18,355 nucleotides of DNA from a virus. Lineage: Duplodnaviria; Heunggongvirae; Uroviricota; Caudoviricetes. This document shows positions 12,503-14,053 of this stretch, piece by piece. Each line of letters starts with the position of its first letter. Within the stretch, counting starts at the first letter, position 1. The DNA lies in IMG/VR virus record IMGVR_UViG_2534682080_000004, positions 1-18,355 of that record; one strand, 5' to 3'. A program made the position numbers and the translations under genes. The notes beneath the pieces were generated by a model that made no database searches, was not told where the DNA came from, and saw nothing but the letters and a program-made list of their open reading frames with translations.

Positions 12503-12859
12503 ATGCGTGATATGTATGAAGTAATGGATCGTTGGGGAGCTTGGGCTGCTTCAGACAATAGCGGAGTGGACTGGCAGCCGATAGCGGCTGGTTTCAAGGG
12601 ACTTTTACCTCATGGCAAAAAGTCACGGATTCAGTGTGATGATGACGAAGGCATCATGATAGACAGTTGTGTGGCTCGGTTGAGAAGGTATAAACCAGAG
12701 GAATATGAGCTCATCATCGCCCACTTTGTTATCGGTATCTCATTACGTACTATTGCGAAGAAGAGAAAATGCTCTGATGGCACAATTAGGAAGGAACTGC
12801 AAACTGCAATGGGGTTTGTTGACGGCTGTTTAGCAATGTTAGCTTATAGTATGGCATAA
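12503..12859 (+). CDS. Late-gene antiterminator Q (small Q family, about 118 aa)
   Basis: MRDMYEVMDRWGAWAASDNSGVDWQPIAAGFKGLL resembles the Phage_antitermQ family as I recall it; ATG 12503 with GGAGA SD; located just upstream of the lysis cassette. Confidence 0.6.
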   Translation: MRDMYEVMDRWGAWAASDNSGVDWQPIAAGFKGLLPHGKKSRIQCDDDEGIMIDSCVARLRRYKPEEYELIIAHFVIGISLRTIAKKRKCSDGTIRKELQTAMGFVDGCLAMLAYSMA

Positions 12860-14053
12860 AAAATAAAATAGATTTACTGCCGATTTTTCAAAAAAGACTG
12901 GGAACTGTTTATATCCAACGTAAATAAGGCCTCCATAAAACATGGCTGATGCGAGATATTTAACAGTTCTCATCCTTTTTTTAGCTTTATCAATCAAACC
13001 TGTAATGCTACTCTTAATACTATCTGCATTATCTTTGATTTCTTTATTTTCTTCAAACTTTAAATACTTATCGAAAGCGGACTCCACTCGAGAACGTAAG
13101 TTGTCGAATGTTTCATTGAATATCTCAATAGAAATGTAATTGACTTTTTTTATCATCCAAAGTCCTGCGATAATCAATATTGCTTCGGTTGTTTCATTAG
13201 CCTTCACTAAGCCACCAGCAGCTATTAATGCACCGGGAATAGTCAATGCTTTTGTCTGATTAGATGATATGAATTCGTTAATTTTACTCGTGAACTCAAG
13301 ATTTTTCTCATCGAGTTCGTTAAGAATTTTATTTACAGAAAACCTCTTTGTGTAAATCTCATATAGTTCATCATATTTTTTCCTGACGAGTTCAGTAGAG
13401 TTAAGCAAGTCAAAGAAATTGAATGTACCATTTGCTTTAAATACTTCGTTTATGGCTGAGCGTATAACGAGCTTGCGCTCGCTTTTGTGTAAATCATTGA
13501 TTTTTATTGTGTCGAGAAGCTCCTTTATAATTTCATATTTAAGAGACGAGTTCGATAAACGATTAATCTCGCTATATTGTAAAAAATGCGTGAGTTCGAC
13601 TGTATAACTTTTGTCTTCATTGGTGAAAAATAAGACAGAGCAGTCACTGTTATGATGATCAGCAATTAATGAAAGGATATCTTTCCACATAAAGAAAATA
13701 TGGATTTTTTCGATGCTTTCATTCTTAGAAGTAGGGAGTATTAACGGCGTTCCGATGATATAATTTTTCGGAAGAGCGTTTTGGGTGTTTACTCTAGACC
13801 AAAAAGACTCAACATTCTCATAAATTATAGCGTCATCCCAAGATGAAGCTTGGCGATCTAGCCAAATTTCATTATTTTCGATGCAGGTTGTTGCCTTTTT
13901 ATAACCTATAGATTGTAACAGTCTAATTATTTCAGAACTATTTACAATAACAATGCTTTCTTCAAGACTTATGACAGTGTAGTAGCCCTCAACTCTGCTT
14001 GAGGCTCCGTTAATAATCTGCGCTAATCTTGATAAGTCATCAGCAATTGTCAT
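12839..14053 (-). CDS. Cargo gene B: 404-aa protein with large soluble N-terminal domain and C-terminal transmembrane helices; candidate membrane effector
   Basis: Long ORF in AT-rich DNA; hydrophobic segments ALTIPGALIAAGGLV / AILIIAGLWMI and YLASAMFYGGLIYVGYKQFPVFF near the C-terminus; ATG 2 nt after stop of gene A. Confidence 0.75.
   Translation of the reverse strand: MTIADDLSRLAQIINGASSRVEGYYTVISLEESIVIVNSSEIIRLLQSIGYKKATTCIENNEIWLDRQASSWDDAIIYENVESFWSRVNTQNALPKNYIIGTPLILPTSKNESIEKIHIFFMWKDILSLIADHHNSDCSVLFFTNEDKSYTVELTHFLQYSEINRLSNSSLKYEIIKELLDTIKINDLHKSERKLVIRSAINEVFKANGTFNFFDLLNSTELVRKKYDELYEIYTKRFSVNKILNELDEKNLEFTSKINEFISSNQTKALTIPGALIAAGGLVKANETTEAILIIAGLWMIKKVNYISIEIFNETFDNLRSRVESAFDKYLKFEENKEIKDNADSIKSSITGLIDKAKKRMRTVKYLASAMFYGGLIYVGYKQFPVFFEKSAVNLFYFLCHTIS

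Follow-up and report, generated by a model that had tools for sequence, protein, structure and literature searches.

DS-1B, a predicted membrane protein paired with a nucleoid-associated protein in a lambdoid prophage

The gene pair and its identity as DS-1

The window analysed here is the whole stretch of 18,355 nucleotides (nt) of the caudoviral record IMGVR_UViG_2534682080_000004 in IMG/VR, and the subject is one of its genes, gene B, together with its neighbour, gene A. A sequence-only reading of the window had placed an open reading frame (ORF) of 404 amino acids (aa) at 12839–14053 and suggested that it encodes a membrane effector of the abortive-infection (Abi) type. The ORF listing and the translation confirm this ORF and place it on the minus strand, directly behind gene A:

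12839–14053, minus strand: gene B (DS-1B), a 404-aa ORF with an ATG start, from the ORF listing and its translation
14056–15231, minus strand: gene A (DS-1A), a 391-aa ORF directly upstream of gene B
14053–14058, minus strand: the A/B junction, in which the TAA stop codon of A, a 2-nt spacer and the ATG of B follow each other (AGC TAA TA ATG, read directly)
15257–15284, minus strand: a sigma-70-like promoter candidate (TTGATA, 16 nt, AAAAAT) upstream of gene A, with 9 of 12 matches, from a consensus scan only

The 2-nt gap shows that the two genes are tightly linked, while the translational coupling to gene A that had been claimed is plausible. In relatives, the junction measures -8, -1 or +18 nt. 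Promoter-type sites are not enriched over shuffled sequences in the consensus scan, so the candidate upstream of gene A is weak evidence for a promoter.

Both proteins are identical to known ones. The product of gene B agrees in 404 of 404 residues with the RefSeq coding sequence WP_000150292.1, and the 399 residues printed in Table S8 of the paper cited below also match, while the product of gene A is residue-for-residue identical to WP_000355468.1. These two proteins constitute DS-1 (working id D390) of DeWeirdt, Mahoney and Laub, Science 2026 (PMC13092281). Compared with DS-1, the gene order and the spacing are the same, and there is no difference at the protein level. In NCBIfam (release 20, with cut-offs at the curated equivalog level for both models) B matches NF053869, "DS1_2_antiphage", with 375.2 bits against a cut-off of 315; residues 46–378 align to positions 1–337 of the 337 in the profile. 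A matches NF053868, "DS1_1_antiphage, nucleoid-associated anti-phage protein", with 451.4 bits against a cut-off of 330. The PHROGs families are phrog_5023 for B and phrog_3767 for A, and the recent names given by the Prokaryotic Genome Annotation Pipeline (PGAP) are "anti-phage protein" and "nucleoid-associated anti-phage protein", respectively. Gene B is a real and already known defence gene, annotated in NCBIfam and experimentally tested in 2026.

In other collections the pair is less visible. There is no significant Pfam match anywhere in B, neither A nor B matches a family in PADLOC-DB v2.0.0 (2023) at E ≤ 1, and a tblastn search of 50,697 phage records with B as the query was negative, although phrog_5023 matches B. 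The earlier statement that the first roughly 270 residues belong to no recognised family therefore holds for Pfam and PADLOC but not in general, as NF053869 and phrog_5023 are models of the whole protein.

The defence activity has been measured with the DS-1 operon under its native promoter on a low-copy plasmid in E. coli MG1655 (PMC13092281). The operon protects against Bas1, Bas26, Bas3 and T3, while its effect on T5 and T7 is weak (PMC13092281). The Table S7 entries for DS-1, given as -log of the efficiency of plating (EOP), are 7.6 for Bas1, with plaques absent, 2.7 for Bas26, 1.7 for both Bas3 and T3, 1.0 for T5, 0.9 for T7 and about 0 (-0.15) for SECphi27, where only smaller plaques are recorded (PMC13092281). 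None of the 26 occurrences of D390 in that table is an entry for T4 (PMC13092281). Defence is thus known for this exact pair. In the same publication the domain table annotates YejK alone, in residues 42–382 of A, the coiled-coil sheet does not contain B, and the main text does not give a mechanism for DS-1 (PMC13092281).

The pair is not confined to this window. A 3.35-kb megablast query spanning the locus found a place with at least 80% coverage in 106 of 5,426 complete E. coli genomes. At least 1,000 contigs carry the exact sequence of B, whose 90% cluster includes both E. coli and Salmonella; the cluster of A has additional members from Klebsiella.

Gene A matches the Pfam family NA37 (YejK nucleoid-associated) with E = 1.2e-23 over residues 64–376 and the PDB structure of YejK, 9be2, with E = 1.2e-9. 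At its N-terminus a CxxC...CxxC zinc ribbon can be seen at residues 4–24 (window 15160–15222); this assignment is based on weak matches to Pfam zinc ribbons and on the DefensePredictor HHpred table (NinF, probability 86), and on nothing else. Among the 13 A partners, at least one N-terminal CxxC is found in 11 and two in 7. The product of gene A is presumed to be the sensor of the system.

The linkage between A and B was studied in loci from a scan of one genome per species (12 species) and in three further loci obtained by exact protein look-up. The genera covered include Pseudescherichia, Yersinia, Proteus, Morganella, Phytobacter, Pantoea, Pseudomonas, Pseudoteredinibacter, Colwellia, Thalassotalea, Pseudoalteromonas and Serratia, in addition to a metagenome bin labelled Lactobacillales. 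In all intact loci with sufficient flanking sequence (13 of 13), B is immediately preceded on its own strand by a homologue of A. The pairwise identities of A and of B co-vary (r = 0.92, 78 pairs), with B diverging faster. The data thus show a tight, co-evolving linkage of A and B. A 14th locus, in Photorhabdus viridis (L017, ~3594–4975), contains fragments of both the A and the B homologue and is apparently a decayed whole system.

The neighbours of the A-B pairs include AbiEii, AAA_15/21 ATPases, BstA, integrases and resolvases. In Serratia marcescens (L003, 7423–8334) the pair adjoins a protein with the BstA C-terminal domain and serine recombinases, and in Pseudoteredinibacter (L002, 8617–13189) it adjoins a pair of AAA_15/21 ATPases and AbiEii/DUF6088.

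Domains and predicted topology of DS-1B

For the analysis of the protein, 69 close relatives of B were collected, of which most belong to Enterobacterales and a few to marine gammaproteobacteria, and a profile search of 1.84 billion cluster representatives gave 777 relatives at E ≤ 1e-3, nearly all of them about 400 aa long. Alignment A1 represents the close family, and alignment A3 contains 96 diverse members that are 14–42% identical to the B protein of the window. The AlphaFold2 model of full-length B, built from 44 sequences, has a mean predicted local distance difference test score (pLDDT) of 84, and the N-terminal 222 residues modelled separately reach a pLDDT of 93 and a predicted template modelling score (pTM) of 0.86. 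The protein can be divided as follows, where TM1 and TM2 denote predicted transmembrane helices:

13559–14053, minus strand: B residues 1–165, acidic alpha/beta domain, candidate docking ("DMK"-type) module for the A product
13250–13558, minus strand: B residues 166–268, helical region ending in the stalk helix 220–269 (invariant columns of A1, full-length model)
13136–13249, minus strand: B residues 269–306, hydrophobic helical hairpin with TM1 at ~266–283, the loop KANETTE and TM2 at ~288–306 (hydropathy, DeepTMHMM range)
12959–13135, minus strand: B residues 307–365, Lys/Glu-rich helical hairpin, net positive and predicted cytoplasmic (AlphaFold2 helices 288–331 and 337–383)
12842–12958, minus strand: B residues 366–404, third hydrophobic helix at ~366–384 and a short hydrophobic/amphipathic C-terminal helix at 385–403 (hydropathy)

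In the model, the alpha/beta domain (1–165) is followed by three helices (169–218), the stalk helix of 50 residues (220–269), a short hydrophobic helix (271–282), a loop (283–287), a long helix (288–331), a return helix (337–383) and the terminal helix (385–403). The alpha/beta domain has a net charge of -9 and a pI of 4.8, close to the family medians of -9 and 4.85. Neither the full model nor the N-terminal model has a significant match in the PDB, and the close-family profile A1 finds nothing among the PDB sequences even at E ≤ 10. The N-terminal two thirds of the protein, for the sequence-only reading a soluble domain without a recognised family, is better described as a conserved acidic module; modules of this kind are where the nucleoid-associated partner docks in the PANGU work discussed below.

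The strongest conservation in the family falls outside the head domain, in the membrane-adjacent helix and where TM1 begins. The conserved residues are Y227, F238, S239, N241, K242, E246, K257, Q266, K268, A269 and P273, of which P273 is invariant in alignments A1, A2 and A3 and F238 is nearly invariant among the 96 members of A3. Judged from the alignments, this helix and the P273 region occupy the position expected of an element that couples the head to the membrane or gates it.

The two hydrophobic stretches that had been noticed in the C-terminal part are present, at ~266–306 and ~363–384. The first is really two short helices, ALTIPGALIAAGGLV and AILIIAGLWMI, linked by KANETTE, and the hydropathy is marginal in this ortholog. 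A weaker hydrophobic stretch follows at 386–401. The Lys/Glu-rich linker between the two stretches is also there: residues 301–366 contain 15 K/R and 11 D/E and are modelled by AlphaFold2 as a helical hairpin. This hairpin is basic, with a family median net charge of +3 and a pI of 9.4 for residues 306–365 and a net charge of +6 for residues 346–375, while the TM1–TM2 loop KANETTE (284–290) is slightly acidic.

Hydrophobicity is conserved across the family at 265–311 and 361–388. The family-mean Kyte-Doolittle values over 15 residues are 2.0 for the first stretch and 1.8 for the second; in distant members they rise to 2.6 and 2.2, respectively. DeepTMHMM had been named as a check of the membrane anchor, and the published prediction for the identical protein marks residues 269–404 as transmembrane (Table S8, PMC13092281). 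Because of this call and the family-wide hydrophobicity, membrane insertion is the best reading of the C-terminal region.

From the basic linker, the acidic TM1–TM2 loop and the positive-inside rule, the predicted topology is a cytoplasmic N-terminus, TM1 crossing outward, TM2 inward, a cytoplasmic hairpin and TM3 outward. The C-terminus would then probably be periplasmic. In the relatives P0058, P0076 and P0086 (L002/L012, Pseudoteredinibacter isoporae) a bacterial SH3 domain follows the last hydrophobic helix, which suggests a periplasmic C-terminus and a possible contact with the cell wall.

Comparisons with known membrane modules were made at the level of structure and of profiles. A Foldseek search of the PDB with the full B model gave a best E of 0.45, and the non-significant top of the list consists of the alpha-pore-forming toxins AhlB, MakA, ClyA and SmhB, and of CorA, with TM-scores of ~0.15–0.2. 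With E ≥ 0.45 and TM-scores below 0.2 for these toxins, B shows no significant fold similarity to ClyA/AhlB-type alpha-pore-forming toxins. The profile of the 96 A3 members finds MJ0480 (E = 7.5e-5), TMCO1 (E = 0.006) and, more weakly, CAMLG/Get1-WRB in the PDB, and all these alignments cover TM2, the hairpin and TM3 of B. In shuffles that preserve the segments, MJ0480 scores 23.1 bits against a mean of 3.5 and a maximum of 19.4, and TMCO1 17.8 bits against 3.3 and 13.4; the real sequences outscore their segment-shuffled versions in 300 of 300 trials. When the sequences are reversed, TMCO1 keeps 13.2 of its 17.8 bits while MJ0480 keeps only 8.5 of 23.1, so most of the TMCO1 signal does not survive this control, whereas that of MJ0480 does. 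The Pfam family 8xMP (PF24838, an octameric membrane protein family) matches weakly in 7 of the 96 relatives, with a best E of 9e-5 and all scores below the 30-bit cut-off; in P0170 residues 287–398 align to 109 of the 136 model positions. The literature searched on this family yielded nothing of relevance.

The predicted order and topology of TM2, the positive helical hairpin and TM3 in B match those in the Oxa1-superfamily modules (archaeal MJ0480/DUF106, TMCO1 and Get1/WRB) and in 8xMP. However, all scores are below the curated thresholds and support at the level of the fold is absent. The similarity, seen in sequence profiles, may be taken as a lead on how the membrane module is built and not as a family assignment. 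It can be speculated that the C-terminal module is an Oxa1/8xMP relative acting as an oligomeric gated leak, in which docking of A would pull on the helix and proline from F238 to P273 and thereby open a hydrophilic groove or pore. We consider this detailed proposal rather unlikely as it stands; if true, it would define membrane effectors of a new kind, gated by a protein and based on an insertase-like scaffold. Concrete mutants and assays for the mechanism can be derived from the conserved membrane-adjacent motif, the topology predicted for B, the acidic head with its novel fold and the weak similarity to insertases.

Membership in the SLATT family was also considered and rejected, since B has no SLATT match in Pfam at E ≤ 1. 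Among the 96 relatives, one matches SLATT_fungal (E = 0.003, 18 bits against a cut-off of 26.5).

A proposed membrane output and its alternatives

The gene was found here from sequence alone, and two studies from 2026, independent of each other, would assign it to a novel type of immunity whose infection sensor is a nucleoid-associated protein. One is the DS-1 paper, the other the work on PANGU (bioRxiv, April 2026, 10.64898/2026.04.06.716658), in which a YejK-like nucleoid-associated sensor is combined with a variable effector. Among PANGU-like operons the nucleoid protein stays the same and its partners differ (10.64898/2026.04.06.716658). In type I the partner is an enzyme toxin activated by binding of the nucleoid protein, which relocalises on infection, and in type II the nucleoid protein Pag2A is paired with the transmembrane effector Pag2B (10.64898/2026.04.06.716658). 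In its AlphaFold model, Pag2B carries a transmembrane domain at the C-terminus and an acidic "DNA-mimicking" domain at the N-terminus, and the acidic domain binds Pag2A with a dissociation constant (KD) of 19 nM (10.64898/2026.04.06.716658). The E. coli system PANGU-Ecu requires both genes, neither gene is toxic by itself, and the growth curves have an abortive appearance (10.64898/2026.04.06.716658). Upon T4 infection, Pag2A fused to green fluorescent protein (GFP) leaves the nucleoid, and T4 escapes through mutations in denA (EndoII); PANGU-Ecu blocks T4, whereas T1 and T5 are resistant to it (10.64898/2026.04.06.716658). How Pag2B is activated "remains to be determined" (10.64898/2026.04.06.716658).

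The architecture of DS-1 matches type II PANGU. Both are bicistronic with the YejK-like gene first, both have a partner with a C-terminal transmembrane region and an acidic N-terminal domain, and both are known from E. coli and are associated with defence islands and with mobile elements. However, DS-1A has a zinc ribbon, which the preprint does not mention for its nucleoid proteins. Type I PANGU (Pag1A with the GRel toxSAS toxin Pag1B) resembles DS-1 in its YejK-like sensor, which in type I docks on an acidic "DNA-mimic" domain of the effector. In contrast to B, the type I effector is a soluble alarmone synthetase (pppGpp), while B is a predicted membrane protein and lacks a toxSAS domain in Pfam. 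The acidic domain and the hydrophobic module belong to DS-1B itself. The requirement for both genes, the non-toxicity, the abortive-looking growth, the relocalisation and the nanomolar binding have been shown only for the architecture-matched type II system.

We suggest that B is probably the membrane-embedded output protein of a two-gene anti-phage system formed with A, carried as cargo by a lambdoid prophage and acting through membrane damage. In an uninfected cell, A would sit on the chromosome and B would rest inactive in the inner membrane, its acidic domain and stalk facing the cytoplasm. A phage that damages or remodels the nucleoid would release A, and the freed A would bind the acidic N-terminal domain of B. 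The binding, relayed by the conserved membrane-adjacent helix, would then switch the membrane module, probably as an oligomer, and the switched module would dissipate the integrity or the potential of the membrane. Phage production would stop at the expense of the infected cell.

This proposal resembles several Abi systems, i.e., the two-helix membrane effectors of CBASS, Pycsar and Thoeris type, SLATT, the octameric pore Csx28 and lambda RexB, in which a cytoplasmic sensor switches a small helical membrane module. As in those effectors, a hydrophobic hairpin in B is followed by long cytoplasmic helices. Unlike in those, there is no SLATT match and no cyclic-nucleotide-binding domain, and activation is presumed to occur by docking of a protein and not by a second messenger. 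The early suggestion of an Abi-type membrane effector paired with A thus agrees with the defence by DS-1 and with the description of Pag2B as an effector, while we infer the disruption of the membrane itself.

Several points weigh against the proposal. The published work on DS-1B (PMC13092281) and on Pag2B (10.64898/2026.04.06.716658) contains no experiment demonstrating membrane damage. Since neither model of B matches the PDB significantly, no known pore fold supports the proposed output. The plaque-free 7.6-log block of Bas1 is also compatible with direct immunity instead of abortive infection. The phage spectra differ, as PANGU-Ecu blocks T4 while T1 and T5 resist it, and DS-1 blocks T3 as well as Bas1 and Bas3, which are T1-like phages of the BASEL collection, and has no T4 entry; expression differed too, being from the native promoter for DS-1 and by induction with isopropyl beta-D-thiogalactopyranoside (IPTG) in the other case. 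That DS-1 would be a type II PANGU system we infer from its architecture only. Finally, the hydrophobicity of B in the window is marginal. The best 19-residue Kyte-Doolittle mean is 1.56 compared with the usual 1.6, a crude position-independent Hessa-type sum is positive for every 19-residue window, and the hydrophobic cores are only 12–15 residues long.

These marginal hydropathy values leave room for a variant in which B inserts only upon activation. B would then be a latent toxin, soluble or peripheral at rest with the hairpin packed on the stalk as in ClyA or AhlB, and A would trigger the insertion. The short hydrophobic cores, below the standard transmembrane thresholds in this ortholog, would fit such a protein, and so would the type II PANGU constructs, which are non-toxic in the absence of phage; AhlB, MakA, ClyA and SmhB are also the best Foldseek matches, although these are non-significant (E ≥ 0.45, TM-scores below 0.2). 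However, the DeepTMHMM prediction includes a transmembrane region, the segments of distant relatives are hydrophobic throughout and reach Kyte-Doolittle values of 2.6, and the SH3 domains fused after the last helix imply that the C-terminus is constitutively exported. We find conditional insertion quite unlikely, and the membrane-embedded output protein is kept as the preferred reading.

The roles of the two proteins could also be reversed. B would then be a membrane sensor or anchor that responds to entry of phage DNA or perturbation of the envelope, and A, licensed or released by B, would be the effector that coats, compacts or blocks phage or host DNA. In favour of this, A is a YejK paralogue that binds DNA and carries an additional zinc ribbon, with one CxxC or more kept in 11 of the 13 partners, and the strong, plaque-free block of Bas1 resembles direct interference; one sentence in the PANGU preprint suggests that PagB might sense and license PagA (10.64898/2026.04.06.716658). 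Against this, the type I partner is an enzyme toxin activated by binding of the nucleoid protein, and it is the nucleoid protein that relocalises. A constant nucleoid protein with varying partners is, moreover, the usual pattern of a sensor with exchangeable effectors, and B evolves faster than A. Reversed roles are therefore unlikely, and we retain A as the presumed sensor and B as the output.

A classical toxin-antitoxin pair was rejected, because the architecture-matched system is not toxic with either gene alone. For a nucleoid sensor acting on a membrane output, the question raised is how docking of a DNA-binding protein activates a membrane protein, and what the consequence for the membrane is.

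The prophage and its cargo cassette

The surroundings of the pair in the window are those of a lambdoid prophage integrated beside proA and tRNA-Thr. The A-B pair lies antisense between the gene of the Q antiterminator (12488–12859, plus strand) and the holin gene (15494–15709, plus strand). The region between them differs in composition from its flanks:

12860–15294: low-GC cargo cassette, ~34–37% GC compared with ~50% in the flanks (composition profile and phage comparison)

In the phage comparison, related phages match the query only from 1 to ~460 and from 2896 onward, i.e., window positions 12400 to ~12860 and 15295 onward. As they share only the Q side and the holin side, ~12860–15294 can be regarded as an exchangeable cargo cassette. 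Kati, PhiR49_1, cdtI and other lambdoid phages carry other cargo between Q and S, e.g., an OmpD-like gene, a DNA methylase or an HNH endonuclease. Because related lambdoid phages differ in their cargo here, the Q–S interval behaves as a hotspot for exchangeable cargo. For annotation, the consequence is that this prophage holds a functional, published defence cassette, DS-1, between Q and the lysis genes.

The position of the cassette bears on a further explanation, superinfection exclusion, in which B would block the injection of siphovirus genomes at the inner membrane and A would be an accessory. As cargo of a prophage lying antisense to the late operon, the pair resembles the morons expressed by lysogens, B is predicted to be an inner-membrane protein, and the strongest protection is directed against Bas1 and Bas3, without plaques. 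However, T3, T7 and T5 are affected as well. The podoviruses T3 and T7 and the siphovirus T5 enter the cell by different routes. The pair is also found outside prophage Q–S regions, next to defence genes, in Serratia, Pseudoteredinibacter and Pseudoalteromonas, and its strict, co-evolving link to a cytoplasmic DNA-binding protein is foreign to known exclusion proteins. Exclusion is in our view very unlikely as the function of DS-1, and the two-gene system with a membrane output is preferred. A holin or lysis role for B was likewise rejected, because the gene runs antisense to the lysis cassette and its pairing with the gene of a nucleoid protein is strict.

Q and gene B are convergent, and their 3' ends overlap by 21 nt. 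On the other side, just upstream of the holin gene, there is a strong intrinsic terminator at 15349–15370 (plus strand) with an 8-bp GC-rich stem and a T run, which resembles the late tR' terminator, the target of Q. Between the Q gene and this terminator lies the DS-1 cassette.

Near tRNA-Thr, the gene of a tyrosine integrase (1459–2621, minus strand) is split by a frameshift into overlapping ORFs of 262 aa and 152 aa. The prophage may therefore be defective in excision, or the split may be a sequencing error. The same integrase gene is intact in E. coli TUM1226 (L001, 1596–2714), where it encodes 372 aa.

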